A DNA stretch of 64,000 nucleotides, from NCBI GenBank assembly GCA_024137785.1, contig JAHRHZ010000018.1:49640565-49704564 (forward strand), given 5' to 3'. The stretch's first letter is position 1. Every line of letters starts with the position of its first letter. The stretch is from Ginglymostoma cirratum. Its lineage: Eukaryota. A program made the translations under genes and the position numbers. The notes under the pieces are model-generated. The model had not been told where the DNA came from and did no database searches. It saw nothing but the letters and a program-made list of their open reading frames with translations. Positions 9,006 to 64,000 of this stretch are shown in pieces.

Positions 9006-9952
9006 CACAATGCGCACAAGGCACCGTAAATGGAGCCAAGAAACCTAGATATAAAAACTACAATGCCAGTTGTTTGCAATTTAATATGAAGTTGGAATTT
9101 TATGAATTTTACTTGAAATGTTTGTTGGTGATGAACTTCCTCAGTATTCATGCCCCACTACTCACACTTAGGGGTCCTTTCTAACTACAAAAATTGTGTA
9201 AGAATAATGTATAACCTGATTTAGTTGTTGCGATGACAATCTCCAGATTGTCATCTCCGATGACAAATATCAGATGATTGTTTCCTTTGGCTAGAGTCAT
9301 TGTGTGTGAAGTATGAAGAGTGGAAAAGTGTATCTTATTTCCTGGAAATATACTAGAAGGGATTGTTTCCTTCATTATCTACTGTTTTATTTGATTTGTC
9401 AGTCTAGTGAGGATTTGATTTGATTTATTTTGGTGATTTAATTTATTTATTGTTACATGTACCTAAGTGCAGTGAAAAGCTTTCTTTACGAGCAGCACAG
9501 GCAGAACATAGTAAACAAGGGCATACAGATCACAGGGTGAAAAATACATTTAGACAGAGGCATACAGGTTGCATTGCACAGGGTGTACATTAGCAAAATC
9601 AACATTAGCAAGATCAGCATTATTTGAAGTTCGAGTTCATTCATCAATCTAATAACAGCCAGGAAGAAGCTGTTCCTGAACCTGTTGACACATGTGTTCA
9701 AGTTTCCACATCTTCTGCCTGATAGAAGGGGTTGTAGGAAAGCATTACTGGGTGCAATGGGTCTTTGATGATTTTGGCAGCCTTTCCACAGTAGCGAGTC
9801 GTGTAAATTGAGTCCATTATTGGAAGGTTGGTTTCTGTGATGGTCTGGGCTGTGCACACCACTTTTTGTAGTTTCTTATAGCCCTGGGCAGAGCAGTTGG
9901 TACAGGCCGTTAAGCACCTGAACAGTATGCTTTCAATGGTGCATCTGTAGAA

Positions 9953-10052
9953 CAAAAACAAAGTTGCTGGAAAAGCTCAGTAGGTCTGGCAGCATCTGTG
10001 GAGGAGAAAACAGAGCTGACGTTTCGGGTCCGGTGACCCTTCCTCAGAACCT
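9953..10052 (-). mobile_element. 100-bp PLE-derived mini-element carrying a hammerhead ribozyme, with a 14-bp TSD
   Basis: Direct repeat GTGCATCTGTAGAA at 9939-9952 and 10053-10066. The insert is homologous to 43669-43768 and 62374-62482. Confidence 0.9.
10014..10051 (-). ncRNA. Minimal type I hammerhead ribozyme (PLE type), intact core
   Basis: Minus strand GGUU-CUGAGGA-A-GGGUC-ACCG-GACCC-GAAAC-GUC-AGCU: CUGANGA box, 5-bp stem II, GAAA box, palindromic ACGU stem III, GUC cleavage triplet and a short stem I. Confidence 0.8.
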
Positions 10053-10087
10053 GTGCATCTGTAGAAGTTAGTATGGGACCAATTTTT

Positions 10088-10434: not shown

Positions 10435-11571
10435 GCCTTACGGACATGCTAAATCTCCTGAGCCATCTGAGGAAGAAGCTACGTGTTGTGCCTTCTTGAC
10501 TGTTGCATTTATGTGGGAAGTTCGGGACAGGTTGGTGGTTATCCTCACTGTGAGGAACATGACAATTTCCAGCCTCTCAACCTCAGCTCCAGGAAGAGAT
10601 TGATCATAGAATTCACAGGGTTGCACTTTCAAAGCACTGGGAGGAGTTGCGAACTGAAAATCTAGAAGAATCCATTTGCCAATTATCCCACATATTTTAA
10701 TACTTTTCTTCAGGGTGCTCATTGGACAGCAAGACAAGACAGGTTAGTTGCAAGGCAAGTGCAAAAATCTGCAGCAAAAGGACACAGCAGAGGGTATCTA
10801 GGGAGGGGCTGCTGCCAGGAGTGGGACAAGCTTAAAGAGACAAGCTCAGTGAGCTTGGGAATGTGGTGGAGATAATGACTGGAGACTGAAATTGTGGTGA
10901 AAATAATGTTTGGAGGTGTTACAATTGTTGCCCAGTTACCACCCTCGACAACAGGTGTTGGCTCGCCGCAAGGAAGGAAATAGCCAGGTCTGTATCAACA
11001 AACAATCGATCTTATTGGTTAGTTAAAACAGACATACAATTCACATTGTTCGATTAAGAAAGAGTTAAAAGCAGGCATGCAATTTTTACAGGACTAAAAT
11101 CTATGCACATACCCACTAGGTTTTCTAAGACATCCCCTGAACAGTCACGGAAAATAAAGGCTAATACCCGAGAACAGGAGGTCTCGCTGGCCAGGCAATT
11201 CCCCAGGTACTCAGTGTGATCTCCATGCTTCCAAACATAGGGTTATCCACTTCAGCGAAGGTTAATCACCAGAGTTTTCGCTACAGACCCTCAGTCGCAC
11301 TCTGTTTTATCCCTGATCCTCTTACCTGCGTCTTCCAATCAGGGACATCTACCTAGACTCCATTTTCACCCCCTTGGTCCAGGAACTCCCTACCTACGTC
11401 CGTGACACCACCCACGCCCTCCACCTCCTCCAGAACTTCCAATTCCCAGGTCCCCAACACCTCATTTTTACGATGGATGTCCAGTCCCTATATACCTGTA
11501 TTCCCCATGCTGATGGCCTAAAGGCCCTCCGCTTCTTCCTGTCCCACAGAACGGACCAATCCCCCTCCACC

Positions 11572-11671
11572 NNNNNNNNNNNNNNNNNNNNNNNNNNNNN
11601 NNNNNNNNNNNNNNNNNNNNNNNNNNNNNNNNNNNNNNNNNNNNNNNNNNNNNNNNNNNNNNNNNNNNNNN
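11572..11671. other. Assembly gap (100 N)
   Basis: Run of N. Confidence 1.
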
Positions 11672-12030
11672 AAGGTGAGCCCTTTACTGAGGACTGACTG
11701 TTCGTCCTCAGTAAGGGGGAGGTCTGGGGGGATGGTGAAGACTCGGCAGGGCTCAGTGTTGCTGTCTCCTCTGGAGCTGCTGGCTGTGGAGGCTGTGGGC
11801 AGAGCGTTGTCGGCGTCGGCTGTGGGCGGAGTTACGTTGGCAGTGGGCGGGGTTGCGTTGGCGTCGGCGGTGGGCAGAGGTACGTCAGCGGTGGGTGTTG
11901 TGTCGGCTTCGGCGGTGGGCAGACTGGCATCGGCGGTGGGCGGAGCGGCGGCAACAGCGATGACGGTGTTGGTTTTGGTGATGGAGGCGGTGGTTTCAGC
12001 AGCGGCGGCGTTCGCTGTCCCGGAAGTGGT
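11672..12030 (-). mobile_element. Inverted N-terminal segment of the same PLE (Pro/Thr/Ala-rich repeat plus SKGL motif)
   Basis: Minus strand: (PPTADA)n repeats followed by PCRVFTIPPDLPLTEDEQSVLSKGLT, resembling the conserved PLE N-terminal LT..E..VLSKGL.F motif. Confidence 0.75.
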
Positions 12031-12800
12031 TTCAATTCCTCCCACTTCCTACAGACAAAAGGGGTGGCCATGGGTACCCGCATGGGCCCAAGCTATGCCT
12101 GCCTCTTTGTAGGTTATGTGGAACAATCCCTCTTCCGTACCTACACTGGCCCTAAACCCCACCTCTTCCTCCGTTACATTGATGACTGCATCGGCGCCGC
12201 CTCGTGCTCCCACAAGGAGCTCGAACAGTTCATCCAATTCACCAACACCTTCCACCCCAACCTGAAGTTCACCTGGACCATCTCAACACTTCTCTCTCCT
12301 TCCTGGACCTCTCTGTCTCCATCTCGGGCAACCACCTAGAGACAGATGTCCATTTCAAGCCCACTGACTCCCACAGCTACCTGGAATACACCTCCTCCCA
12401 CCCACCCTCCTGCAAAAATGCCATCCCCTATTCCCAATTCCTTCGCCTTCGCCGCATCTGCTCCCAGGATGAGACATTCCAATCCCGCACATCTCAAATG
12501 TCCTCATTCTTCAAGGACCGCAACTTCCCCCCAACAGTGGTCGAGAACGCCCTCAACCGTGTCTCCCGCATTTCCCGGAACACATCCCTCACGCCCCGTC
12601 CCCGCAACAATAACCAAAAAAGAATCCCCCTCGTCCTCACATACCACCCCACCAACCTCCGGATCCAACGCATCATCCTCCGACACTTCCGCCATCTGCA
12701 ATCAGACCCCACCACCAAAGACATCTTTCCCTCCCCACCCTTATCTGCCTTCCGGAGGGACCACTCCCTCCGCGACTCCCTTGTCCGCTCCACACTCCCC

Positions 12801-12900
12801 NNNNNNNNNNNNNNNNNNNNNNNNNNNNNNNNNNNNNNNNNNNNNNNNNNNNNNNNNNNNNNNNNNNNNNNNNNNNNNNNNNNNNNNNNNNNNNNNNNNN
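12801..12900. other. Assembly gap (100 N)
   Basis: Run of N, covering the position where the GIY-YIG motif is expected. Confidence 1.
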
Positions 12901-15900
12901 CCAAGCGGAGGCTTGGGGACCGCTTTGCAGAACACCTGCGCTCAGTTCGCAACAAACAACTGCACCTCCCAGTCGCGAACCATTTCAACTCCCCCTCCCA
13001 TTCCTCAGATGACATGTCCATCCTGGGCCTCCTGCAATGCCACAGTGATGCCACCCGAAGGCTGCAGGAACAGCAAATCATATTCAGCCTGGGAACCCTG
13101 CAGCCCAATGGCATCAATGTGGATTTCACAAGCTTCAAAATCTCCCCTCCCCCAACCGCATCCCAAAACCAGCCCAGCTCATCTCCACCTCCCTAACCTG
13201 TTCTTCCTCTCACCCCAAGCCACACCCCCATCTCCTATCTACTAACATCATCCTGCCCCCTTGACCTGTCCGTCCTCCCTGGACTGACCTATCTCCTCCC
13301 TACCCCCCTACCTACACTCACCTTTACTGGCTCCTATGATGCTGCTTGACCTGCTGTGTTCATCCAGCCCCATGCTTGTTATCTCGGATTCTCCAGCATC
13401 TGCAGTACCTTTTATCTCAGGGACATCCATGCCTTGTTGTTAAGCGCTGATCCTCCAGTCAGGCACCAGGACTGCTTCCCCTTTCCTTATTTGGTCTCGG
13501 TAGCAGCCATTATGTACATGACTGTTACCAGGTTTCATGCCTGACTGGAGGATCAGCGCTTAACAACAAGGCATGGATGTCCCTGATTGGAAGACGCAGG
13601 TAAGAGGATCAGGGATAAAACAGAGTGCGACTGAGGGTATGTAGCGAAAACTCTGGCGATTAACCTTCGCTGAAATGGATAACCCTCTGCTTGGAAGCAT
13701 GGAGATTACACTGAGTACCTGGGGAATTGCCTGGCCAGCGAGACCTCCTGTTCTCGGGTATTAGCCTTTATTTTCCGTGACTGTTCAGGGGATGTCTTAG
13801 AAAACCAGGTTTCATTCGTTCAGCTTGAGTAACTTGCAGTTTCTCCATTCAGGCTTTAACCCTTCCCAGCCAACAAAATATCATCTCAAGAGACTATGCA
13901 ATTGATGAACATGCCATCGAGGAACCAAACTGCAAAGCAGCATGTGACCAGCAATCAGCTACACTTGCTATGAGTAATGGTGGTTGTTGAATTGCTCGAG
14001 CACACCAATTCTTTTTGATCCATTTATAGCACGTTGTTGTAGTTTTCAAATAAATCAAACTTACTTATAGTTTCCCAATCCTCTCTGTGTGACTAGTGAG
14101 TTCACATAAATAGGCAAGCAACAGAGAGATGAGATCATGACATGGAGATGGAACTTGCACATAGGCTTAACCATCTTGGAAGAGAAAGCCTTCTCCATTT
14201 GACTCCAAAACAATGTCATAAAAGCACTTACTTTATGAATTCCAGACTTTTGCATATTCTTTTACCTGCCTGGTTTTCTAAGTCCGAGGAAACTCAGCTG
14301 ACAGGAACTAAGGAGAAAATCGTTGGTAAAATTGAGGTATATCAATATATATCCCGCTGAAGAGATTTTCATGGTTAACCTGCCTCCTGAGAGCAAATTA
14401 ATCACTAAAATTAGAATGAGATGCAAACCCGTTGGACTCAAGTTTAAAATCTTTGTAGTTTTCGTTTCTTCTCCTGTCCAGCTCTATGAGACTTGAAGGT
14501 TAAAATTATGTTTTTTTTATATTTCATGATGGAATAGTAACTGCTTCTGATCATTGCTCGCCAAGAGATAGGATTATAACTAGGTTTCTGACTGCATGAA
14601 TGAGAAACAGAAAGGAAGCTGATTTCCCTAGCTAGCTGCAGATTACAGATAAATCACTGAATGAAGTTTTTGCCAAAGCAGTCAACACAGAACATAAAAG
14701 AGACAAAGCACAACAAAGTGTGCATAAACCAAACTAGTGCAAAGGAATAAACTCACAATTGTTATCACAAAGGAATGGAGTGGAACGTCTGCTGTTAATT
14801 TCAATCAAGTAAGTCATCATGAGGTTACAGTAGGAAATCTGGCTTAATACTTCAGCTGGAATCATTGAAGGAGGAATTACATCCCCATAAGTCCTTTTAA
14901 CTAAGTTCTAAATTAGTTCTTTCAGCAATCTTCTTTTCTTCGAGTTGCTGGTTGCATTAATTGAAATTCAAATTTAATGAGCCAACCAATTTGAATTCAA
15001 TTTAGAAAATGCTGTGAATGGGAGCATTTTGAGCCTTAATTAGCTCCATACTTTCTTTTACTAAAGACTATCAATTCTACAGTTTCAGCTGAATCTTATG
15101 TCTGTTGCCATCTCCTGTATGTTAGTCCACCAATATGTTCCCCAGAATTTTTCAATTTTAACAGAAACAGATACACTGCAAATATACCAGAGAGGGCTAT
15201 ATATGTGGTTGTGTCCAATGAATAGTGAAGTGTAATCAGGTACTGGTTTTGACTTCAAGCTTTGTAGCTTGAAAGTGACATTTTATAATGATAAAATTGC
15301 AATGAGAAAACAGATGAAAAGGAATATCACAGGGTTTATAAAATGCTCAGAGGAACAGATACTGCAGAAACAATGTATTTATATCAATTTTAACAATTCT
15401 ACTGTTTATAGTCTTTTCTGCCAGGCTAGACTTGAACAAGTGATAGGATTTTGGTTTAAAACTTGGCCTGACAGCGAGACAAGTGGTGCCACCAAAAAAC
15501 GTGCGCAGAATAACAACGGTTTTTAATTTTGCTTAAATGAAAAATTAAAAGATGGTATGTGTTATATGTACCTAGGAGAGTGTAAAATAAAAGGAGAGAA
15601 TTGGGATAAAAATGTTCCTTCCAACTGGAGGTGCTTAATTTTATCATTTTTATTTTGACTGATTCCAATTTTTTGCTCAGGACTGGTATTTCCGTCATAG
15701 AACTATTGATGATATTTTAAGATACTGTAACCTTGGGGATTGTTTGGCATTGCGGTATCTGAGCTGAAAATTAGAAAATATGTCTATGTTACAATTCGAG
15801 TCAGGTTACTCGCTTTTAAAAAGTGCAGCAATCCTTCAACAAACATTGGTTTTTAAACTAGTTATTTTCTCATGTCAGGCTACAATCAGAAATACAAAAA

Positions 15901-17750: not shown

Positions 17751-17881
17751 TAGAGACAAAAATAAACTGCGGATGCTGGAATCCAGTCCTGAAGAAGGGT
17801 AATATCCAAAACATTGACTTCTCCTTTCTTTCAGATGCTGCCTGGTTTGCTGTGTTCTTCCAGCCTCCTGTTTGTCTATCT
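17751..17881 (+). mobile_element. Short PLE terminal fragment with a degenerate HHR, an inverted 5' piece and a 10-bp TSD
   Basis: TSD TATCTATGCC at 17741-17750 and 17882-17891. CTGAAGA-AGGGT-AAT-ATCC-AAAAC-ATT at 17789-17815. The 5' piece CTGCGGATGCTGGAATCC is the reverse complement of the PLE 3' end. Confidence 0.75.
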
Positions 17882-31962: not shown

Positions 31963-33795
31963 TGTAGGCAGGATATGCCCTGAATGAGCCGGAAATCACT
32001 GGCATTGAGCTGTTATGTTGTCAGCGGCTGACATGATGCCAGCATCTTAAATTGGAACAGTGCAGGTCCTGTCCTGGCAATTCTTGAAGAATTGTGGGAA
32101 GCAGTAAGGTGTATCCTGTAGTAATACTATTTAAAGAATGTGGGGTACAGTTGAGGCAAATTTGTGGGAATATTTCTATTGGAAAGCTCCTGGAAATATT
32201 TTGATGTATTTCTTGATACTGGCTCAGTGGATGCCTACAGGGTATTTCCCATTGTCACAGGGCAGACTGAGCTGTCCTTGTGAAGCCTACTACAGGTATT
32301 GGGCAGCAAAGACTGTGCCTCTGGGTCTGCAGCATGGCAAACAAATGAAGCAGAGATTGTGGACTGGAGAAGCTTTGTGCCACCCCTTTTGACACATTGG
32401 AGCGGACCCTTCCATGTTCCTTGACAGTATCTAGCAGGCAAGCAAATGCCTCCATCATCTTAGTGCACATACCTTTTTACCATTTCATATATGCCACCCA
32501 TTGAGGTGCTCATCTGAGTCCTCTGTAAAAGCACTTCTCTGCTACCTCAGCTTCGGTGAGACAGCAAAAGGAACTGCCATTCTCTTCCCCGATCTGGTTG
32601 TACCAATTTTTACCCAGTGACTGACCACATGCTGATCCCAACTCCACATCACCTTCCAAGGTGAGTGCAATGCCAGTGTTTGAGCTGGAACACTGAGTGT
32701 CAGATCATGGAAAAGGGCATCCTCATCAGTGCTGTGCTGTTGCTCTTCCTGGGGCAGTTATGTCTCAGTGTGCTGAAGTTCTTAGCAGTGTGAAAGCAGG
32801 AACTCTCAAGGGTTCAGTGGGGCTCAGTGGAAGTCAGGAGGCCCACAGGCACACATCAGCAACTTTGTCCCCATGTCAGCTAGCAGGTTGAGGATAAGTC
32901 GGAAAAGGGTCATAAGGCGGGAGCATTATCCTGAGTTTTCTCAGTATCACTGGATGATAGAGGCCCATCATAGCCATCACCATGATATAGAGAATTATAT
33001 TTTCTGGTCCATGAGATGCAGACATCCTTTTTCTGTTGGGGTTCTTCTCTGCCCTCTTCCATTGTGTGTACCTGGTTCTGCAAAAAATGTGGAAGAAGTG
33101 TCAGTGGTTGTGTAGTACTGTGTTCGGATGATTCGTCAGTCATTGTTAAATAGCTGGAGCTATGCATAGGCAGTGAGTATTTCCTGCTCCCTTACATGAC
33201 CATATTCTTCTGTGCCTCTGGACAACTGATGCCTCCTGTATCACATTCATCACTACGGATCCTTCTGTCTTCTTTCCAAGAATGTACATCAGTGTAATCA
33301 TTGTCACATAGCTTACCTTTAAGAGGTAGCCTTCCTTTTAAGAGGAGAAGGTTATCTATACCTCCTGATTGGTAGGCAATGCTGCTGGAACCTCCTGATG
33401 TTTGTAAAGATTGCTGGCAGCACTAAGACACAGAAATCACTGCTGGAGATGTGCCAACTAACATCACCATCATTCAAATGTTTTGGATATACTGGTTTTG
33501 TGTGTTTACCACCTCAATATGAACATGCTAAAGGCACGTTGAGAACTGTAATCCCAAAATCCCGAAAATCAGGGCAAATGAATTTGAGCCTACTTACTCT
33601 AAAGCACTGGGGGGATGCATAGTTACTGTCACAACGAGATAGAATTTGACCATCAAGAATTTGATCAGCAAACAGCGTATTGAGAGTTCCCAACATGTGA
33701 AACAAGCAGACCGTTCAGCTGGTCAGCTGTAGTATCCTTACAGAATGGCATCCGCAAGAGGGTCGGCACGAGCAAGGTAATAAACACACCTTAGG

Positions 33796-34075
33796 ACCAG
33801 TTCTGGTAGCACCTGTGGGGAGAAAGAAGAGTTAACATTTTGGGTCCAGAGACCCTTCTTCAGAACTGATTGGAGCTATGAAAAGGTTGGAATATATGCT
33901 GAAGTTGAGATGGGGGTGTGGGGGAAAGAATAAACAGTAGGTGGAGATGGAGTTCATAGAGAGAGGAAATGGGTCGGGCAGATAAAGGAATGAGTAAAGG
34001 TCAACCTAGGAGAATGAACAGCTGCTGATGGGGATCATTAGTTGCTGACAATGGGTTGTTTGTAGTAGTGGCCCA
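33796..34075 (-). mobile_element. PLE 3' terminal region with a degenerate HHR
   Basis: Minus strand CUGAAGA-AGGGUC-UCUG-GACCC-AAAAU-GUU (33834-33863) preceded by the pyrimidine-rich PLE terminal region. Confidence 0.7.
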
Positions 34076-35459
34076 CAAGATCTTGTGTGTGGGCATAATG
34101 GCATTGTCACAGGACTAGTAATCCAGAGACCCAGATACAGTTGTGAGGGCTCAGATTCATATCTCACCATGGCATATCGTGGAATTGGCACTCAGTGAAT
34201 ACCTGGAATTAAAAGTCTAATGATGACCATGTAATCATTATCCATTAATATTATCTGGTTCGCTAATCTCCTTTAAGGAAGGAAAGCTGTTGGCCTTACC
34301 CAGTCTGGCCTACATGTGACTGTAGACCCACATAAATGTGGTTGGCTCATAATTGACCTCTGAAATGGTGTAACAATTTGTATCAGTTCTATCAGCAATG
34401 ACTAAGGCACAGGACATGGCAACAACAAACATAGCTCTATTGCTCCTGCAAAGTATAACGTTTGAGGGTTAAGTATCAAAACTGGGAAATCTGTCTCATA
34501 AATTGCTCAAGCAACAACCTGACATAATTATACTCATGCCTCACAGACAATGTCCCAGATGCCATCATCACCATCCCTTGTATGTCCTGTTACTGAACTC
34601 CAAGCTGCACATGCAGCAAGTATTAGTCGGAGCTAAGCAATTCCACAGGCTGCAGTTCCAAAGTAAGCTCTGCATTCCTCCCACATTCAATTGTGAATGG
34701 TGGTAGACAACCAAACAATCCACAAATATCATCAATGGGGGAGCCCAGCACATCAGCGCAAAAGATGAGGCTGAAGCAATCACAGCAATCTTCAGCCAGA
34801 AGTGCCCATTCCAGTGGATAATTCACTAGAAGTTCCCAGCCAGTTTTCAGCCAATTCAATTCACTCCACATGATATGAAGAAAAGGCTGGAGGCACTGGA
34901 TACTGCAAAGGCTATGGGCTCTGACAGCAATTTGGCAAAAATACTAAAGACGTGCGCTTCAAAAATGCAATGTCCCTAACTAACCTGCTCCACAGTAATA
35001 ACACTTACATCTACCAGACCGTGTGGAGAATTGCCCAGGCATGCCCTGTACACAAAATCAGGATGAATCCATCCTGTCAATTACTGTCCCATCACTCTAC
35101 TCTTAATCATCAGTGAAGTGATGAAAGATGTCATCACTAAGTGCTATCAAGCTGCACTTGCTTAGCAATAACTTTCACACTGGCACTCAGCTTAGGTCTT
35201 GCCAAAGTCACTCAGCGCCTGACCGCATTACAGCCCTGTTCCAAATATTGTCATAAGTGCTGAATTCCAGGTGAGGTGAGTCGGGACATCAAGGCCCAAT
35301 TTGACTGACCACTAAGGGAGCCTACCAAAACTAGAGTAAATGGAAATCGGGCAGAAAACTCTTCACTGATTGGAGTCATATCTGGCATAAAGGAAGATGG
35401 TTATGCTTTTGAAATTAAGACATCTCAGCTCCAGGACATCTCTGCTTGAATTACTCAGG

Positions 35460-35576
35460 GGAGATATTTCAAAACAATGTCTCCAGCAATGTTATGACAC
35501 ACCTGTGATCCAGGTAGGACTTGAACGCAGGTCTTCTCAGAGATAGAGACATTAACACGATGACACTGAAAGCCCC
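35460..35576 (-). mobile_element. Short tRNA-derived SINE relic
   Basis: Minus strand GGGCTTTCAGTGTC...GCGTTCAAGTCCTACCTG..ACAGGTGTGTCATAACAT, with a B-box-like GTTCAAGTCC; interrupts the LINE B RT. Confidence 0.5.
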
Positions 35577-35850
35577 AGTTCCTCCAGGTATGTCCATGGC
35601 CCAACCATCTTCAGCTACTTTATTAACAACCTTCCCGTCAGCATAAAGTGTGGGTGTACATCAATTGCAAAATATTCAATACTATCATGACTCATCAAAA
35701 AAATCAAGCAGTCCATGGCCAAAGCAGCAAGCCTTGGACAATTTCTATATCGGGCTAACAAGTGACAAGTAACATTCGCAGCCCACAAATTCCAGGCAAT
35801 GACAAGCTCCATCTTGACATTCAATGCATTCAAACTTTGGAAAAGATTTG

Positions 35851-36657
35851 AAGCCTCTTCTAAGGATGCCTACCCTGAAGAAGTTACCCTCCTCCCTCCG
35901 GACAAACCTCAGGGAATCTCTCTCCCACTGCAACTCTCTCATAACCTCTTCGGCCTTGAAACTGCTCGACCACGTCCTGAAGCAAACCAGGTACTACAGC
36001 CACATCACCTTTCTTCGTACCTGCCTACGGAACCAGATCATCCCCAATGGACTACAATCCACATTCAAGCCTTCCCAATTTGGCCCCAACCGGGACAATA
36101 TCTACATGGGGAACATTGAGACCCTCCAGAAGCGCTTCTCCCTGTGAGTCCTGAAACACACACTTGCAGCAATGCGCCGGCATATCCAGCCACTACAATC
36201 AAGACTCCCCCAGCTCAGAGCCTCCCTCTCCCAGACCTGCAAAGGCAAAATCTCCCCTCCCCCAACCGTATCCCAAAACCAGCCCAGCTCATCTCCACCT
36301 CCCTAACCTGTTTTTCCTCTCACCTCAAGCCACACCCCCATCTCCTATCTACTAACATCATCCCGCCCCCTTGACCTGTCCGTCCTCCCTGGACTGACCT
36401 ATCTCCTCCCTACCCCCCTACCTACATTCACCTTTACTGGCTCCATCCCCGCCTCTTCGACTTGTCGGCCTCCTCTCCACCTATCCTCTCCTCTATCCAT
36501 CCTCTATCCGCCTCCCCCTCTCTCCCTATTTATTTCAGAACCCTCTTCCCCTCCCCCATTTCTGATGAAGGGTTTAGGCCCGAAACGTCAAGTTTTCCTG
36601 CTCCTATGATGCTGCTTGACCTGCTGTGTTCATCCAGCCCCATGCTTGTTATCATAG
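35851..36657 (+). mobile_element. Internally deleted Neptune-like PLE (N-terminal ORF fused to the 3' terminal region)
   Basis: N-terminal peptide MPTLKKLPSSLRTNL...HITFLRTCLRNQIIPNGL joined at ~36246 to sequence nearly identical to 13136-13334. Possible TSD AAGATTTG at 35843-35850 and 36658-36665. Confidence 0.85.
36560..36591 (+). ncRNA. Minimal hammerhead ribozyme in the PLE terminal region, intact core
   Basis: UU-CUGAUGA-A-GGGU-UUAG-GCCC-GAAAC-GUC-AA. Confidence 0.82.
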
Positions 36658-36665
36658 AAGATTTG

Positions 36666-38033
36666 TAGCTCAGGTTGTGGATGAAGTTTTAGACTTGCTC
36701 ACCAAGCCGGTATGTTTAATTGCTGACGTTTTGTCACCCTGCTAGGTAACATCGTCAGTGCGCCTCCAGTGAAGCATTGGTGTTCAGTTCCATTTGTTAT
36801 TTATATGCCTTATTTGCTGGGGTGGTTGACATCACTTCTGGTTCTATTTTTCATTGGTTTGTATATCAGGTCCAGTTCAACGTGTTTGTTGATGGAGTTC
36901 CGGTTGGGATGCCAGGCCTCCAGGAATTCTCTGGCATGTCTCCATTTGGCTTTTGCTATTATGGATGTGTTGTCTCAGTTGAATTCGTGTCCTTCATTGT
37001 CCGTGTGTGTTGAGACCAGGAGGTGAGTTACTCACTGCAGTGTTCCTAGCCTCTGACTTGCTCTTGTAGCTCTGCATTTATGTGGCGAACCAAGTCAATT
37101 TCTGGTAAATGGTAGCTCCCAAGATATTGATAATGGTGGATTTAGTGAGGGTAATGCATTGAATGAGGTTGTAGTGAGAATTAGTTGTGTTTCTTGGTGC
37201 CTGGTTGGTGTTTGTATATCCTTAATGTCAGTTTTCTTCCAGTTTGGCCTATGTAATGTGTCTCACAGTCCTTGCATGGTATTTTGTATATTGTATCAGT
37301 TTTATTGGTTGTGGGTATGGGATCCTTTACGTTCATCAGTAGCTGTCACAGGGTGGTTTTTGGATACCCAAAAAAGCACAATCCGCCATTACCTCTGCAG
37401 CAGACAAAAACAGGAAGACACAACACGGCCAGACGCACTAGTCAACCTACCATGCACCAGAGACATATCAGAGATGACCACAAGACTACTCAGACCCCTA
37501 GGTATCAGGGTAACCCACAAACCAACAACCAACCTGCGACAGATACTGACGAACGTAAAGGATCCCATACCCACAACCAATGAAACAGACATAACATACA
37601 AAATACCACGTAATGACTGTAAAAACATTACGTAGGCCAAACTGGAAGAAAACTGACAATAAGGATACACAAACACCAACTAGCCACCAAGAAACACGAT
37701 CAATTCTCATAGCCGCAATACACAGACAAAGATGGACACGAATTCAACTAGGACAACACATCCATAATAGCACAAGCCAAACAGAGACATGCCAGGGAAT
37801 TCCTGGAGGCCTGGTATTCCAATCGGAACTCCATCAACAAACTGGGCCCGATATACAAACCACTGAGAAACAGAACAGGAAGTGATGCCCACCACCCCAG
37901 CAAACTGAGGCAAATAAATAACAAGCGGGACAGAACACCAAGGCTTCACTGGAGTCACACTGATGATGTTATCTAGCAGGGTGACACAACGTCTGCAACC
38001 AAACTCACCGACTTGGTGAGCATGTCTACAACT
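36666..38033. mobile_element. Inverted pair of Penelope/Poseidon-type PLE 3' halves (minus copy ~36666-37352, plus copy ~37355-38033), each with a degenerate HHR
   Basis: The plus copy encodes, across frameshifts, YKIPRNDC..YVGQTGRKLTIRIHKHQLATKKHD and HAREFLEAWYSNRNSINK (GIY-YIG). HHR motifs at 36723-36760 (minus, CUGACGA..AAAACGUC) and 37960-37994 (plus, CUGAUGA..ACAACGUC). Confidence 0.85.
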
Positions 38034-41000
38034 CATTCAATGCATTACCCTCACGAAATCCACCATTATCAATATCTTGGGAGCTACCATTTACTAGAAA
38101 TTGACTTGGCTCACCACATAAATGCAGAGTTACAAGAGCAGGTCAGAGGTTAGAAACGCTGCAGTGAGTAACTCACCTCCTGACTCGAAGAGTCTGTCCA
38201 CCATCTACAAGGCACAAGTCAGGAGTGTGATGGAATACTTCCCACTTGCCTGGATGAGTGCAGCTCCAACAAAATGAAGCTTGACACTAACCAGAACAAA
38301 GCACCAACCTTGATTAGCACCATATCCAAAAGCATCCACTCCCTCCACTCAGTAGAAACAGATGCATCATCTACGAGATGCACAGCAGAAATTCACCAAG
38401 GTTCCTTAAACAAAACCTTCCAAATCCAATACTGCTTCCATCTGGTAAGACAAGGGGAATTGATCAATGACAACACCCCTACCCAACAACCTACTGACTA
38501 TCTTGACTTGGAATCATAAGGCCATTCCTTCAGTGTCACTGGGTCAAAATCCTGGAACTCCCTCCATTAAAGAATTGAGGGTCTACTACAATAAATGGAC
38601 TGTGGTAAGAGGGAAGCTCACCAGCACTTTCTCAATGGCTGTTAGGGAAGATCAATTAATGCTGGCCAAGACAGCGATGTCCACATCCCATGCATGGTTA
38701 AACATGGTGGAGGAGTTCTGAGATTATGAGAAAGATCATCAAGAAGGCCCATACTTACTCAGGCTAGATTGACTGCCAGAGTTTAACTTTCCTCAGGACA
38801 GGCAAGTTTCTGACATATTGCACATTGTTATACTTAAGCACAAAGAAAAAGCACCAAAATACAGGTTCAATCAGGCATTAATGAGTTTGATATTGCGTTA
38901 TTACTTAGCTGGGGTAAGGGTGGCAGAGGTGACCATGATCATTAATCTATTTGTAAAGTTATCCTTCAACCGAAAAAGTCTGGGAAAAACAGGTCAACAC
39001 TGAAGGTGTTCCCCTTATCAACTGTGTTTTCATGCGGAGTGGGCAGTGAAAGTTGGCAATGAGGGAATGGCAACTCATCCCAGGAATTTATCCATTCTTT
39101 CACCCAATGCCTGGAAATAGCACCATTCCTTGCCTACGTGGGCAGCACTTCCTATGAGCCAAGGATTGTGTCTAGCAGCTTCTCCTTGGCTCAAATGAAA
39201 AAGTCATCAGAGTAGGCATGACCAGGCCAAAGTTACTGGGAACAGGGAAAAATGTTCTGAGAAGAAACAGATGCCTGAAGCATCAAAGCGTCTTACATAA
39301 GGATGAGCAACAAAAACCGTGTGAAATTCCTCTCTAGGATAGAGCTAATATGTGCTAAATCTGTTTTAGTGTGAAATGATTTAGCTGGGAGTAAATACTT
39401 TCAAAATCTTGCCCATTCTGCTGAAACTCTCCTGGGTAGTAAATTGGTTTAATGCACAAATCCAATATTAACTTATTTTCTCTTAAGGGCTTATTAACAC
39501 CAATTATGCTCAAACACGTAAACATGTTCATGCTTGCCTGCCAGCTATAGCATGTCAATGGTGCTTACTGTATGGGTGGTTACACAGTAAAAAGAGTTAA
39601 CAGAGGTCTAGACTGGACCATAGGGAAGAGTATGAAGAATGATTTAACTGTTCCAGTCTACAAAATATTATGGGCTTCTTCCCGTAAATTGGCAAAGCCC
39701 AGTGCAGTTTACACTGTCTCTGGGCTGGCAGCTCTTTCAAGTTCTGATAGTGCTGAATATCATCTTGAAACTCATTGCGGCTGGAGTTATAAAATATTAG
39801 ATTTGATTAAAGTAACGTGTATTTATGTAGCACCTTCGATGCAAAAATGTGTCATTGGTGCCTGGGGACAGGGGGGAGATGTAAATCTAATTAACAGAGC
39901 AGATGATAACCAATCACTTTCCTGCCTCTATCCCAAATAGGTTTATGGAGGTGGAGACCTTCCTGCCCTCTGTCAATTGATGAAGTGGTCAAGGAGCTTC
40001 CTGGACTCAGCTTAGAAACCTTCCTATGTTTCACCTTAGCCCATTGTCATGTGACTTAACTGGCTGCTGTCCTAGTGAGCTATGAGTTGTGGAGTCTTTG
40101 TTGGCCCAATGTTGATGAGCTGTCCCTCATCACCAGCTCAGGAAAGCATCTAGCAATGCACTGTTAGTGAGACCCAACTGTTAGACTGGGCCAGGTCTCT
40201 CATTGGAGCTTTCCAGTTGTTAGACTGCTCAACCCAAAAGCTTCCTCTCCAGGAGTTGAAATCCTGCCATTACAATTCTCAAAATGAAAGCACTTTTCAA
40301 AGTGCATTCTCCCTATTAAATGAGAAGGAATTAATGCAATCTTCCTCTGTTCCATGCTCAAGCAAGAAACCTAAGTATTCATTGCCAGAACTATGGAGCT
40401 CTTGCACAGAAATATGACATTCAACTCCATCTAACTTATTAGTGAAACTGCTCTTAGAAAATTGCATTTTATTGATTAGTGATTAACTGAGCAAAATGTT
40501 CTTTTAATCTTACTTTTTGTTTGAGATATTCTGCATTCTTTGCAGATTTTCCCTGCATCATGCTGCAGTCCCTAGATGGTTCCGTACTCATTAGCACAAC
40601 TGCTGATCCTCTCTAGATCCCTTTGAATTCTAACAGCCTCCAATAAGCAGGCAAACTGGAAGAATTATCCGTCCAAGGACTGCTCCCCAAGGAAAACCAG
40701 TCCGTCACTTTCCCTGGTTCAAATAATGCTCACTTACTGTAGCATTATATTACTCTAACTGACACATCCAGTAGATCAGAAAAGCCAAAAATAGATGTAG
40801 ATGCCAATGTCTTATGTAACAGTGAATTGAATGAGAACCCTTATTCCTTTACTTACCTTAATTGTAAAAGACAAATCAGAACCTAACACTATAAAGAAAT
40901 GGATACAGCTCCCCAAGCATTAAATGAATACGGGGTCTGGTCTTATCATTTCTCTCTCCTGCCTTAACAAGTGGCCTTGATTTTAACTGGCCTCCCCACG

Positions 41001-43074: not shown

Positions 43075-44425
43075 TGTCTCGCTAACTTGATTGAGTTTTT
43101 TGAAGAAGTAACAAAGAGGATTGATGAGGACATAATGGAGCACATGATCTTTATGGACTTCAGTAAGGCGTTTGACAAGGTTCTTCATGGTAAACCGGTT
43201 AGCAAGGTTAGACCACATGGAATACAGGGAGAAATAGCCATTTGGATACAGAACTGGCTCGAAGGTAGAAGACAGACGATGGTGGTGGAGGGTTGCTTTC
43301 CAGACTGGAGGCCTGTCACCAGCGGTGCGCCACAAGGATCAGTGCTGGGTCCACTGCTTTTCATCATTTATATAAGCGTTTTCGATGCGAACTTAGGAGG
43401 CATGGTTAGTAAGTTTGCAGATGACAATAAAATTGGAAGTGTAGTGTACAGCAAAGAAGGTCACGTCAGAGTACAACAAGATCAATGGGCCAAGGAGTGG
43501 TAGATGGACATTAATTTAGATAAATGTGAGGTGCTGCATTTTGGAAAGGCAAATCAGGGCAGGACTTATATACTTAATGATAAGGTCCTGGGGAGTGTTG
43601 TGGAAAAAAGAGATTTTGGAGTGCAGGTTCATAGTTCCCTGAAAGTGGAGTCCCAGGTATACAGGGTAATTCTAAGGAAGGGTCACCGGACCCGAAACAT
43701 TAACTCTGATTTCTCTTCACAGATTCTGCCAGACCTGTTGAGCATTTCTGGCAATTTCTGTTTTTGTTAGTGAAGAAGGCTTATGGTATGCTCGCCTTTA
43801 TTCGTCAGTGCATTGAGTAGAGGAGTTGGGAGGTCATGTTGCAGCTGTATGGGACATAGGTTAGGCCACTTTTGAAACACTGCATTCAATTCTGGTCTCC
43901 CTGCTATAGGATAGATGTTGTGAAACTTGAAAGGGTTCAGAAAAGATTTACAAGGATGTTGCCAGACTTGTAGGGTTTGAGCAGGGTTGGAGGGAGAGGC
44001 TGAATAGGCTAGGGCAATTTTCCCTGGAGTGTTGGAGGCTGAGGGGTGACCTTAAAGAGGCTTGTAAAGTCATGAGGAGCATGAATAGGGTAAATAGACA
44101 AGGTCTTCTCCCCAGGGTGGGGGAGACCAAAACTAGAGGGGCATAGGATTAAGGTGAGAGGGGAAAGGTTTAAAAGGGACCTAAGGGGCAACTTTTTCAC
44201 ACAGAGGGTGGTGCCTATATGGAATGAGCTGCCAGATGAAGTGATGGAGGTTGGTACAGTTACAACATTTAAAAGGATGTGTACATGAATAGGAAGAGTT
44301 TAGAGGGATATGGGCCAAATGTTGGCAAATAGGACTAGATTTATTTAGGGTATCTGGTCAGCAAGGACAAGTTGGACCAAAGGGTCTGTTTCCGTGCTGT
44401 ATATCTCTATGACTCTATGACTCTA
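43075..44425 (+). mobile_element. HER1/CR1 LINE RT C-terminal half plus 3' tail
   Basis: NLIEFFEEVTKRIDE, MDFSKAFDKVLHG, VTSGAPQGSVLGPLLF, SKFADDNKIG; tail CTCTATGACTCTATGACTCT. Confidence 0.93.
43669..43768 (+). mobile_element. 100-bp HHR mini-element with a mutated core
   Basis: CTAAGGA-AGGGTC-ACCG-GACCC-GAAAC-ATT...CTGTTTTTGTT. Interrupts the HER1 sequence CAGGGTA|GTGAAGAAGGC; no long TSD. Confidence 0.85.
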
Positions 44426-44965
44426 AGTGGCAGGTGGAGTTTAATTTGGATACATGTGAGCTATTGCATTTTGGTAAAACAAAAAGGGGCAAGACTTATA
44501 CAATTAAAAGTAGGGCCTTGCGTAGTGTTTTAGAACAGAGAAACCTAAGAGTTTGGGTACATAATTCTTTGAAATTTGCATCACAGGTTGACATGGTGGT
44601 GAGGAAGGCATTTAGCACACTTGCCTACGTTGCTCAGACCTATGAGTGTAGGAGTTAGGAAATCTAGTTGAGGTTGTACAGGACATTGGTGAGGCCCCTT
44701 TCGCAGTATTGTGTCCAGTTCTGGTCACTCTGTTATAAGAAGGACATTATTTTAAACTGGAGAGGGTTCAAAAAATAATCACCAGGATGTTGCTGGGAAT
44801 GGAGGGTTTGAGATATAAGGAGAAGCTGGAAAGGCTGATACTTTTTCCACTGGAGTGTAGGAGGTTGAGGGGTGACCTTATAGAGATTTTTAAAATTATG
44901 ATGGTATAGATAAGGTGCATGACAGGTGTCTTTTCCCTATGGTGAGGGATTTCAAGACTAGTGGC
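44426..44965 (+). mobile_element. Second HER1/CR1 subfamily fragment
   Basis: WQVEFNLDTCELLHFGK, LRLYRTLVRP..QYCVQFWS. Confidence 0.85.
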
Positions 44966-47062: not shown

Positions 47063-47130
47063 AAAGATAATAGGTACTGCAGATGCTGGAGAATCCAAGA
47101 TAACAAGGTGTGGAGCTGGATGAACACAGA
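47063..47130 (-). mobile_element. Extreme 3' end of a Neptune-like PLE
   Basis: Reverse complement matches ~13354-13417 (CTGTGTTCATCCAGC...GGATTCTCCAGCATCTGCAGTACCT). Confidence 0.8.
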
Positions 47131-49855
47131 AGGCAATCCCTTTGGAAAGGGAGGAGGTGGTGGAAGTTAGTTGGCAGAAAAGTAGAGTTAAAATCACAAT
47201 GCAATCAGCCATGATCTTATTGAATGGTGGAACAGAATGGATGGTCCAAATGCTCCTATTTCTTACCAACTTATGATATTAATTTCACACATACATAATT
47301 TGACCTTCAGAATTGGACCTTTGCCAATTGCTGTTAACCATCTGCCAGTAGTAGAAAACCTTCACTGCTCTTAAAGAGATGAAGGATATGTGGTCATAAA
47401 TTATCAAGTAAATTCACTGTCAGGTATATCTTGTTTCTTTAAGAATCTTCAGACAGACAAGGTCAAGGGCTGGGACTTTAAAAAAAAAACAACTTGCATT
47501 TATTAATTTCCGTCTTTACTTAACAATTGCAGAAGTATTTTGGGTGCCTCAGTCAACCCTTTCCCATTCAATTGAAGCAACTTATTGTTCGTGAATTGCC
47601 ATTGACAACATGGGATATTACCTGCAGTTTGTATTGAGAGGGGGGGGTTCATCCATGTCCTGATCATTTGCAATTAATCCAGCCTTCTCAACACTTTGAG
47701 TCTCAGCTTGTCTAATTCTCTCGCCTACTATGAGCAAAGCTTAGAAAAATGAATATCAAGTGACATCTTTTTGATGCCAATGAATGTAAGTTATTGATCA
47801 TTTGACGGGCAGAGGAATATAATGAGGATATTTCTGGCTAAGCCATGGGGTTATTCATTGTATTGTGTGTATTCTAATCAGGTGCCAACGTTTTCTTGAT
47901 ACAATGGTGTTGAAGTTGCAAGATGTTTTGTCATTTAGGCAGAAGACGACATCATCAATTTTCATTTAGGATCAAATTGAACATATTATAACACTTTGAT
48001 GGATGGGATTTTCTTTAAATTCCAATACATTTATTTTTCCTGAGATCTTGGCGGAGAACAGCAATCTGATCCACCACTCCCCCAGGTGCTGGATATGCCA
48101 TTTTCAATCTGTAGAGAATTATTTATGACTGTAAAGTGGATATCAAGGAAATGTCAATAATTTTTTAGTAAAATGCTTCCATTGTTTTTGAAACTGTAAC
48201 ATATGCAGGAAGCGAGAAGAGAAGGGGGCGATTGTCACCCACTTGCTCAAGGGGAATGCAACTTTTCAGCAGTTAAACTGGAGCAGCTCAATTTCACATT
48301 TTGGTTCCAGCTGATTTCAGATTTTAACAGCACGGCAGGAGATGTGCACGCTCTACTTATGTAGCCGTGAATGTATGTTCAGAGTTTCGCATCCTAAGTG
48401 GGATCCTGTTTGCATTTTAACTCAGGCCTGAGCAGGGAAACAAACACAGAATTGCCAGAGATGAAACCAAACTAGAAGGTCTTGTCAAGGAAGGAAAGAC
48501 CCAACAGTAATGGATGGCTATCCCAGGGTGACCAAGAGGGGCTGGAGTGCTTCAAGGAAAGTTGAGTTTCCTCTGTACTCCACTCCCCGATCCTTGTCCA
48601 ATGCAAGACCATGCTAAAATCCCCCTTCACACATCACATATGAATCTGTGGTAGGTTAAGAGCAATTGAATCTTCAGTAGTCAACAGTCCCATTGCAATA
48701 GGAGAGAAATGGACCAAAGTACCAGAAAATTTTGAGCTGGCAATCCACTTGAGATTAAAATGCACCCTGTAGTTTCTATTAATATTTCACTTCAAAACCT
48801 CCACAATGGTGATAAGCTAATATATGAAACCATTTATTGCTTAAAAAAAACTTTTATCATGAAAAAATGAGTGCATTTTAGATGATCTCCTGCCTCCTGA
48901 CTTTTCAACAGGGTCTAATCATTATGATGCAATGTTATGCATTGTGATGCATACCTACTCTGCATGGGCAGGCTGAATCTTGTAATTAGCTCATCCTCAA
49001 ATTAGGTTATAATATTATTTGTTGGACTTGAACAACATTAGTAAAGAAGGTCCTAGTAACCTCTGGTGTCACAAACAGGGGACAGTGACAGACTAAACCC
49101 ATGTATTCCCCTCACTTTCTGTCAGTAAACAGAGTAATTCAATTTTGATAACATTAAGGAGTGTTCCCAAAATCCCTGTTTTAGTATAAAGTCAATGTTG
49201 AAGTGATTCATCAAAATAGACACTCTTTGAGATTTGTAACCAGGAGCATCATTTGGTCACACATTCAGTCCTAGGGTGGTGATATGTGACGCGGATGCAC
49301 ACACACACACAAGAAAGGTAAGCAGATAAAAGCGGTCTCGCAGATCTGAATCTTAAAACCAAACAGTATGGTTGTCAGTTCACTTGAAGAAGAGAGTCCA
49401 AAAGGCCGGAGTTAGGAGTTGTAGAATTCCTTCAGAGTGTGCAGCTTGGCAAGTCAGCAATTCCTGGCAATGGGATTAGACAGAAAATCAATTTGCTTTT
49501 TGGTTAATTCAAGATCTTTCGGAAGCAGGTTTTGAGGCTTTATCTTACAGACAGTTGCAGCTGTTAGACTAGAGTCTATGGCTTTCGTGGCTGGTGGTGG
49601 CGGGTTGATTGAGGCCTTAAGAATGTGTGATTAAAGCTCTCCAAAATTGGAAAGGAATTTCAATCACATTTCTCTGGCCATCAAGGACATAGTGGGTGGC
49701 TAATAGTGAGTGGTTGATGCAAACAAAGGAGTTTTCACCCCTATTCTTCAGTCAGACCCACTGAGCATACCTCAGGAGATGGGTAATTACATTAAGCACC
49801 AATGCTATGAGTTCTGAAATGTCTTGTCTAATGATTGAGCTGAGCTTGGAGACCA

Positions 49856-61628: not shown

Positions 61629-62373
61629 AAACAAATCAGCACTTTAGCCCATAATACCATAGAATATAGAGGTATATTAGCCTATGAGTCTGCCCTACCA
61701 TTCAATGAGATTATGGTTGATCTGATAAGCCTCAACTCCATTATCCAGCTGTAACCCTTGATTCCCTTACTGATTAGAAATATGTCTTTTTCAGCCTTGA
61801 ATATACTTAATAAGGCAAACTCAACAGCCCTCTCTGATAAAGAATTCCATATATTCACCAGCTTCTGAGAGGAAAAATATCCTCATGTCTATCTTAAATA
61901 AGTGACCCCTTATGCTGAGATTATGCCCTCTGGTCCTTAACTCTTCCAGAAGGGAGAACAACCTCTCCACATCTACCCTGTCAATCCCCCTAAGTACCAT
62001 ACATGTTTCAATAAGGTCTCCTGTCATTCTTCTAAGCTTTAATGAGTACAAGCCCAATGTATTCAACCTCTTCTCATAAGAAAAGCCTTTGATGCCTGGG
62101 ATTCATCTAGTGAACTTTTTCTGGACTAGCTTCATTGGCAGTATATCATTCCTTAAACAGAGGGATAAAGATTGTTCAAGTGTTCAAGGTGTCGTCTGAC
62201 TAGAGCCTTGTATGGTTTTAGCAAGACCACCCTATTTTTATACTCTATTCCCTTTGAAATAAAGGCCAACATTCCATTGGGTTCCCTCTTACCCCCTGAA
62301 CTAGTGTGCTTGCTTTAATGACTCATGGACGAGAACCCAAAATCCCTCAGTGCTGCAGCTTTCTGCAGTCGTT

Positions 62374-62482
62374 ACAAAAACAAAGTTACTGGAAAAGCTC
62401 AGCAGGTCTGGCAGCATCTGTGGAGGACAAAACAGAGTTAACGTTTGGGGTCCAGTGACCCTTCCTCAGACCCTTCCTTTTC
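62374..62482 (-). mobile_element. ~100-bp HHR mini-element with a 12-bp TSD
   Basis: TSD TCTGCAGTCGTT at 62362-62373 and 62483-62494. Minus strand CUGAGGA-AGGGUC-ACUG-GACCC-CAAAC-GUU (62439-62469; GAAA changed to CAAA). Confidence 0.88.
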
Positions 62483-63528
62483 TCTGCAGTCGTTGTCCAT
62501 TTAAATAATAGTCAGCTGTTCTTTTCTTCCTATCAAAGTGCATAACCTCATTCTTTCCCCATACGATATACTGTCTGCCCTGTTTATTTTGCCCACACAC
62601 TTAACCTGTTTATATCCATCTGAAGACTCTTTGTATCATCTTCACTGCCTGCATTCCCACCTGTTTCATGTCATCCATAAACTTGGTGATAGTACATTCA
62701 GTTCCCTCATCCAATCATTAATATATATTGCAATTAATTGTAGTCCCAGCACTGATTCTTGCGTCATTCCACTACTTGCAGGTTGCCCCCCTGAAAACAC
62801 AAACTTTATTTCAATTCTCTGTCTTCTATTAGTTAGCAGCCCTTTATTCATTCTAATATACTAGCCCTAACACCATGGGCTCTTATTGTATTAAGCAGCC
62901 TTACATGTGCTACCTTATCAAATGCTTTTTTGTGATCCAACAATATTACATCCACTGCTTCTCCTGCATCAATCCTATTTGTTACCTCCTCAAAGAATAC
63001 AAATACATTTGTCAGCTTTGATTTCCCTTTAATGAAGCCGTTGTGACTCTGCTTGACTAGATTTTCTATTTCTAAATGCTTTGATATTACATCCTTTATA
63101 TTAGACTATAACATTTTTCCAATGACAGATGTTAAGCTAACTTGCCAATAGTTACCTTATTTTGATCTCCCTCACTGAATAAGGGTGTTAAATTGGCAGT
63201 TTTCCAATCCTCTGGGACTTTTCCAGGATTTTGAAATTTTACTAGTAGTATATCCATAATCTCTGTAGCTATGTCCTTTAAAATCTAAGGATGCAACCTG
63301 CCAGGTTCAGGGTACTTATCGATCCCATTAGGTTCTCTTGTACTTTTTCTCTTGTGATAGATATTGTGCTTATTTTTCTCCCATCTCCCAATCACCCCTT
63401 GATCAATCAGAATTTTTGGAAGGCTATTAGCGTCCTTTACCATGAAGACTGATGCAAAATATTTGTTCAGCTCCCCCACAGTTTCCTGGTTCCCCATTGT
63501 CATTTCCCTAGCCTCATTCTCTAAGGAC

Positions 63529-63685
63529 AGAGAAACAGTTAACATTTTGAGTCTTCAGTACTGAAGGAGTCATTCTGGACTCACAACATTAACTTAGTTT
63601 CTCTCTTCATAGATGCTGACAAATCTGTTGAGTTTCTCTAACATTCTCTGTTTTTGTTTCAGATTTCCAGCATCAGCAGTATTTT
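63529..63685 (+). mobile_element. Older PLE terminal fragment with an inverted 5' piece and a decayed HHR
   Basis: Degenerate TSD GCCTCATTCTCTAAGGAC / GCCTTCATTCTCTGAGGGAC. The 5' piece AGAGAAACAGTTAACATTTTGAGTC is inverted relative to the downstream GACTCACAACATTAAC..TTTCTCT. Confidence 0.65.
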
Positions 63686-64000
63686 GCCTTCATTCTCTGA
63701 GGGACTTTGATTAATTTAGCCTCTCTCTTCCTCTTAATGGATTTAAAGAAGCTCTTTCTCTTGACTGTTTTTGGTCATCTTTTGTTGGCTTTTTAAACTT
63801 TTCCAATCTTCGATTTTGCCACTAAAACTTTCCATATTGTATGTTTTTTGTTCTTCTTTCTTTCAGTTTGATTTTGACCATGTGACTGGGGCTTTGGGCT
63901 GAGACACTCATAATGAGGAGGTTTTGACATTCCTTCATCAGAATCCATTCCACCTTTGTTGTGGATAACTATAAAGCATTTGCACCAACTGAAGCCATAT

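Follow-up and report, generated by a model that had tools for sequence, protein, structure and literature searches.

The window, that is, the whole 64,000-nt stretch of Ginglymostoma cirratum contig JAHRHZ010000018.1 that was analysed, is repeat-rich vertebrate DNA, and it contains three short insertions of one hammerhead-bearing family.

9953–10052, minus strand: copy A, a 100-nt insert from the ribozyme edge to the first 3′ end point (TGTTTTTG), from sequence comparison
9939–9952, no strand: target-site duplication of copy A, 3′ copy, 14 bp
10053–10066, no strand: target-site duplication of copy A, 5′ copy, 14 bp
43669–43768, plus strand: copy B, with ends as in copy A and the core broken at G5, interrupting a LINE-type repeat
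62374–62482, minus strand: copy C, 109 nt, with a 12-bp duplication, G12 changed, and extra 5′ letters that repeat part of the element

An earlier note on this DNA had reported three insertions of about 100 nt with shared ends, and all three are found where it placed them, with pairwise identities of 92% (A and C), 85% (A and B) and 84% (B and C). The clean duplications it described for two copies are exact, over 14 bp for copy A (9939–9952 and 10053–10066) and over 12 bp for copy C (62362–62373 and 62483–62494); duplications of at least 12 bp occur in 0 of 19,822 random window pairs, which served as control for both. The duplication is separated from the hammerhead core by 5 nt in copy A and by 13 nt in copy C, the latter including a repeat of the element's own GAAGGGT. 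No target duplication above chance was found at the flanks of copy B; this copy is bracketed at about 43668–43769 by a paralogous repeat (44432–44726) that is continuous across the site and has no insert. ACAGATGC, inside the target duplication of copy A (9939–9952), is present also within the element, which may reflect chance or microhomology.

Two predicted features lie within copy A.

10014–10051, minus strand: predicted minimal type I hammerhead motif, from pairing across copies
9993–10016, minus strand: candidate splice-acceptor-like pyrimidine tract with CAG and ATG behind the cut site, from a pattern match

The hammerhead motif consists of the helix I 5′ arm (10051–10048), the core box CUGAGGA (10047–10041), helix II (10039–10026), GAAA (10025–10022), the ACGU palindrome (10022–10019), C17 (10018) and the helix I 3′ arm (10017–10014), and the predicted cut is at 10018/10017. 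Every core nucleotide is present, in agreement with the intact core claimed for this copy, and there is an unpaired A before a 5-bp helix II, a 4-bp helix I, and no loop 3 at the palindromic ACGU. Among the five family copies described below, the core is intact only in A; in the other four it is broken, at G5 (B), at G12 (C and D) or at both G12 and A9 (F). Across the seven hammerhead copies of the window, 90% of helix cells are paired compared with 18–54% in slid controls, and 9 of 500 shuffles reach the observed pairing, both being weak covariation tests on related rows. In the same seven related rows, 25 of 28 helix I cells are paired, with 2 compensatory changes, and the G10.1–C11.1 pair is G-C in all seven. 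A search of Rfam at gathering thresholds gave 0 hits, and the 100-nt monomer of copy A folds no better than its shuffles (z = −0.33). A computed dimer with intermolecular helices lies at −17.5 to −19.9 kcal/mol, well above the dimer minimum (−32.8); dimer cleavage has been described by Lunse et al., by way of the review PMC6765202. The sequence supports the assignment of the copy A motif to the minimal hammerheads of Penelope-like elements (PLEs).

Directly behind the cut site, a branch-point, pyrimidine-tract and YAG pattern overlaps helix I, and in most copies an ATG comes next; the first ATG in this family is 52 nt after C3. The strict pattern is present in four of the seven hammerhead copies (B, C, D and H; not A, E and F), with a background of 3×10−4 per position. 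To judge from these patterns, splicing might compete with ribozyme folding at 9993–10016 and at the matching sites.

To collect further copies, we searched the window with a profile built from the copies themselves. It detected seven copies with a hammerhead (E < 1×10−16) and one ribozyme-less copy; a control search of the reversed window returned no hit below E 0.5. The family comprises five window copies (A, B, C, D and F), so the three copies of the earlier note are confirmed but are not its full membership. The two added copies, and one of another family, are as follows.

33799–34082 (end approximate), minus strand: copy D, a longer member of the family that extends about 215 nt upstream of the ribozyme, with its 3′ end cut off
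63528–63689, plus strand: copy F, with a fold-back piece (63528–63558), the ribozyme edge, a body to 63657 and a 32-nt tail (63658–63689)
17751–17881, plus strand: copy H (other family), in which a tail-like piece in inverted orientation meets the ribozyme edge, with a body to the first end point and a 10-bp duplication

Copy D shows a divergence of about 16–19% from copies C and A. It ends in non-coding sequence without a protein match, and a search of its flanks gave no target duplication. TCAGTTC is located at 33869–33863, with its A at 33867 (position −4), and the junction peak described below falls at 33865–33867. A 952-nt contig of organism B covers copy D and its flank (33842–34783) at about 90% identity, which suggests that copy D probably inserted long ago and is common to more than one species. 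Copy F has an exact 9-bp duplication (63514–63522 and 63690–63698); its 31-nt 5′ fold-back lies exactly at the ribozyme edge, centred on TCAG..CTGA, and it extends 32 nt beyond TGTTTTTGT. The 3′ ends of copies A, B and C are at the first site, and that of copy F is at the second site, 32 nt further. The search for tandem copies proposed in the earlier note, run within the 64-kb window, found a tandem arrangement in 0 of 5 family copies, and there is no circular permutation among the family copies in the window. The family motif was found in 0 stretches of the metagenome, prokaryote genome and viral collections. A looser motif returned 119 metagenome loci, all of which were profile-scored and dropped; the three examined in full (L081, L084 and L088) are unrelated, microbial-looking DNA.

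A sister family (family 2) is represented in the window by a comparison copy and by an ORF-bearing element.

35850–36653, plus strand: copy E, the ORF start region joined to the ORF end, 3′ UTR and an intact hammerhead core (C3 at 36562)
11317–13417, plus strand: family-2 PLE with RT and GIY-YIG-type C-terminus, 3′ UTR, body and tail; ribozyme deleted; two assembly gaps

It is in family 2 that an ORF with RT and GIY-YIG is linked to the end module. A PLE protein piece from the window shows 91% and 89% identity with proteins of Rhincodon typus and Stegostoma tigrinum, respectively. Pfam gave one weak RT hit among five window pieces, and the family-2 domains were read from homologs; the cysteine-rich linker of one homolog (P0001) fits the Neptune/Nematis type (PMC8557442). 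By homology, the family-2 ORF starts beyond the tail (35866). In the window no RT/endonuclease ORF is linked to the A-B-C-D-F family, and translations of copies F, E and G match none of 120 proteins.

Several rearrangements were seen around these elements. At 13330–13338 the ORF-bearing copy has lost the whole ribozyme through a deletion that runs from one GCTCC repeat to another (see 36440 and 36600 for comparison). This copy is flanked by a 231-bp inverted repeat of 97% identity (11119–11349 and 13576–13806) and contains an inverted piece of its own N-terminal coding region (11672–12030) next to an assembly gap. A family-2 fragment at 47065–47133 (minus strand) starts well downstream of the ribozyme and includes the tail. 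A second PLE type is present at 37166–38040 as rearranged pieces in inverted arrangement, with a GIY-YIG-like translation at 37490–37690; the CTGACGA...GAAAC match at 37546 is coding sequence and was rejected as a ribozyme. Contigs of organisms A and B join 35914–35940 to 36470–36511 with 0–5 extra letters, connecting the family-2 ORF start with the 3′ UTR about 50–90 nt upstream of the ribozyme. These joins may be head-to-tail derivatives of about 300–350 nt, which would come nearer to a true retrozyme, or they may reflect template jumping that starts from a preferred end; position 36470 is possibly shifted by changes private to copy E.

The distribution of 5′ ends, a check suggested in the earlier note, was analysed on contigs of related organisms. 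Contigs of four public runs (organisms A, B and C, DNA; organism D, guessed to be RNA) were aligned to 33772–36651, which holds copies D and E, with bin borders set near both ribozyme edges; X1, X8 and X14 are the DNA runs and X15 is the run guessed to be RNA. Junctions were counted on assembled contigs, which cannot reveal RNA starts. In three related organisms, at least 2,358 junctions with near-random flanks lie 2–4 nt upstream of the core, among the 24 listed of 6,892 loose-end rows. Among these listed rows, loose ends at 33865 (2 nt upstream of C3) number 398 in X1 and 397 in X14, those at 33866 (3 nt) number 426 in X1, 490 in X8 and 344 in X14, and those at 33867 (4 nt) number 303 in X14, giving totals for 33865–33867 of at least 824 (X1), 490 (X8) and 1,044 (X14) contigs. 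The peak falls at the outer edge of helix I, on the 5′ arm of this 4-bp stem.

The loose ends listed at 33865–33867 have a median loose length of 255 and an agreement of 0.33–0.35. In simulations, agreement is 0.31 for random flanks, 0.33–0.36 when 10–15% share one upstream sequence, 0.40–0.51 for 3–10 alternative upstream types and 0.36 for 20 equally common types. This comparison suggests that most edge junctions open into unrelated DNA. The depth of the ribozyme bin over the next upstream bin is 15.4, 17.3 and 14.4 in the three DNA runs and 10.9 in X15, contig depth not being copy number. Depth thus falls roughly 15-fold at the edge of copy D. The upstream sequence is itself repeated, as contigs cover 33802–33918, 33816–33952 and 33918–34063.

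At the edge of copy E, by the same measure of contig depth, which is not copy number, the ratio is 1.09 in X1, 1.12 in X8 and 1.89 in X15, and depth decays across the following 400 nt. The ribozyme of family 2 is similar and there is no step at its edge, which indicates that the edge rule is not general. Organism C shows a 1,089-fold step at copy E, with next to no depth on the upstream parts of this copy, so cross-family mapping can create such steps and depth alone can mislead. Independently of contig depth, however, the duplications of copies A and C at 5 and 13 nt from the core and the empty paralogous site of copy B show that these copies truly begin at the edge. The 5′ boundary is a real, non-random peak in this family, as the earlier note held in arguing against random truncation.

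The same coordinates exclude cleavage as the source of this end. The listed junctions are at −2 to −4 from C3 and the cut site is at +29; cleavage would fall 34 nt inside the 5′ end of copy A, and cleavage-defined ends were therefore rejected. Splicing to an AG at the ribozyme edge was also rejected as a source of the short copies, because with a shared first exon the loose ends would agree strongly, and because only 5 nt separate duplication and core in copy A.

We favor, at a little better than an even chance, the reading that each insert is a short retro-copied piece of a likely PLE, namely its end module with the ribozyme, and that its ends were likely set by the copying of the element: the template RNA would start at the edge, and the inserts would be the run-off of internal initiation. 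The template RNA's 5′ end would lie at the first letters of helix I and would most likely be a transcription start, at TCAGTTC of copy D, which we take to be an initiator-like motif. The initiator pattern matches 1.2% of positions, and this match comes from copy D alone and overlaps letters fixed by the ribozyme; copy E has no such TCAGTTC at its edge. The Penelope element of D. virilis is transcribed from an internal promoter a short way upstream of the ribozyme; transcription begins 46 nt ahead of an intron of 75 nt (PMC2377424), and the end of this intron maps to helix I (PMC4209133). The PLE endonuclease would make staggered nicks 9–14 bp apart, and RT would initiate within the RNA, either at the TGTTTTTGT site or 32 nt beyond it (tail), copy through the uncleaved ribozyme and run off the RNA 5′ end. 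The resulting cDNA of about 100 nt would integrate, sometimes following a slip or fold-back. The mobilisation by PLE RT and endonuclease put forward in the earlier note fits the duplications, the tail and the fold-back.

Support for internal initiation comes from the anole PLE (PMC11167929), whose enzyme nicks both strands and initiates reverse transcription internally at two sites, which mark the bounds of the tail; the 3′ ends observed here, with A, B and C at the first site and F at the second, fit this internal start. RNA of the anole element is needed out to +172 with the start at +111–118, and mainly uncleaved RNA serves as template in vitro (PMC11167929). In short copies the stretch that the enzyme requires, downstream of the start site, would be missing (a cis-requirement taken from this Poseidon-clade element of a lizard), and so these copies would not move again and their cores would decay. 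The short copies are thus probably dead by-products and not a self-propagating ribozyme element, and the inserts of about 100 nt are best understood as what PLE copying most often yields in this family. The earlier note had the template RNA uncleaved or re-ligated at the cut site; the copies do read through this site, as that view requires, and the largely uncleaved anole template agrees with it, but it leaves out a template jump across a cleaved site.

A further step, which we propose tentatively and rate as clearly short of even, is that PLE RNA begins at the first nucleotide of the ribozyme and RT starts about 100 nt in, yielding a strong-stop-like cDNA. Its jump to the RNA 3′ repeat, which resembles retroviral strand transfer, would lead to full-length copies and pseudo-LTRs; when the jump fails, the cDNA would integrate alone.

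An unlikely alternative is a non-coding master RNA dedicated to serving as template: it would derive from a PLE by deletion, start at the edge and have the tail and enzyme-binding region, and the 100-nt copies would be its SINE-like products and not a mobile unit. The roughly 15-fold depth of ribozyme over upstream sequence and the ORF search, which gave none for this family, would agree with such an RNA; PLE ends are able to mobilise sequence in trans (PMC3846280), and non-autonomous PLE derivatives are known (PMC8557442; 10.64898/2026.07.22.740005). However, distinct variants (A/C, B and F) and another family (H) give the same format, so several independent masters would be needed; the same fact speaks against the independent unit of the earlier note. 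Moreover, the longer copies share upstream sequence, in copy D and in the contigs covering the intervals given above.

Still less probable is a longer RNA from which RT falls off, or on which it folds back, at the ribozyme edge, making that edge a truncation hotspot. Copy F folds back exactly there at TCAG..CTGA, family 2 has neither this quasi-palindrome nor the step, and palindromic inverted junctions are common in PLEs (PMC3846280). Yet the predicted cDNA hairpin at the copy D edge is not stable (0.0 kcal/mol), helix I would already be open by the time RT gets to its 5′ arm, and the loose ends listed look near-random and not like inverted copies.

That the sequence of about 100 nt is itself a minimal retrozyme, processed by its own ribozyme through dimers or circles and re-inserted as a unit, is close to the self-contained unit that the earlier note had inferred, and it appears very improbable. 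The short copies do share fixed ends, duplications of more than 4 bp and the lack of an ORF with retrozymes, the core of copy A is intact, and a PLE origin and consensus lengths of 51–972 bp have been published for vertebrate retrozymes (10.64898/2026.07.22.740005). However, two or more consecutive ribozyme units were found in none of the five window copies, the ends differ from the cleavage site without any circularly permuted copy, and four of five cores are broken. The sequence upstream of the ribozyme in copy D is PLE-type UTR and not the 3′ end of a unit, and tailed and folded-back forms (F) and longer forms (D, and contigs that span the edge) exist. The ribozyme is minimal, with no loop 3, a 4-bp helix I and no Rfam hit, and not canonical type I, two types that are separated in PMC7229834.

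We give hardly any weight to the view that the peak is partly an artefact of PLE families that share the ribozyme module and differ upstream, so that an alignment to any one copy breaks off at the edge. Such sharing probably produced the step seen at copy E in organism C, 20 equally common upstream types would yield nearly the observed agreement, and copy D is diverged from C and A, but 3–10 types would give agreement above that observed, and copies A, B and C are delimited by their own insertion sites.

How PLEs replicate, and what the hammerhead does in this process, is an open question in the field. A sharp, family-specific 5′ end at the outer edge and not at the cut site indicates that the ribozyme does not make the end of the template, and the edge coordinate offers one exact point for 5′-end mapping. 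If the edge reading holds, it would account for many solitary minimal hammerheads in vertebrate genomes, and such copies should not be counted as retrozymes. If the strong-stop-like reading is true, shark genomes would hold a very large fossil record of the intermediate, and DNA alone would map the RNA start and the RT start for each PLE family. It is this exact, family-specific 5′ end that deserves to be pursued.

Much of this format is already in print, including solitary minimal hammerheads from truncated PLEs, tails and inversions (PMC4209133, PMC8557442, PMC3846280, PMC6765202). In the literature searched, with most subscription papers outside its coverage, nothing described a 5′ peak at the edge of the ribozyme or put forward a strong-stop model for PLEs. 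Insertions of EN+ PLEs have a pLTR, an optional tail of 30–40 bp and an inverted 5′ piece (PMC8557442, PMC3846280). The window copies share with 5′-truncated EN+ PLE insertions the ribozyme end module, the 32-nt tail and fold-back of copy F, the inverted tail-like piece of copy H and duplications of 9–14 bp. The available text of this literature describes frequent 5′ truncation and no sharp edge peak, whereas one family here has a peak and its sister does not.

The minimal hammerheads of metazoan PLEs (Cervera & De la Pena 2014, PMC4209133) have the same core boxes, G10.1–C11.1 pair, unpaired base between 9 and 10.1, palindromic 15.2–16.2 without a loop and short helix I, and they are mostly solitary; the solitary ones were called probably related to truncated PLEs. 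The window motif differs from them in that helix II has 5 bp, helix I has 4 bp and the 5′ end of the element is the 5′ boundary of the ribozyme. Non-LTR retrozymes (Cervera & De la Pena 2020, PMC7229834; Li et al. 2026, 10.64898/2026.07.22.740005) are likewise non-coding and PLE-related with a type I hammerhead, and, as with the window copies, they show duplications of more than 4 bp and occur as dispersed monomers. However, they consist of tandemly repeated units that each carry a ribozyme, in most cases a canonical one, and they give circular RNA, whereas the window copies are solitary, minimal and not bounded by the cut site. Poseidon of Anolis carolinensis (PAc; Frangieh et al. 2024, PMC11167929) has in common with the family two 3′ end points about 30 nt apart, some 100–130 nt downstream of the ribozyme, and copies that read through the cut site. 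The available text on PAc does not report clustering of 5′ ends, and the PAc ORF starts in helix II, whereas the first ATG of the window family lies well downstream of C3.
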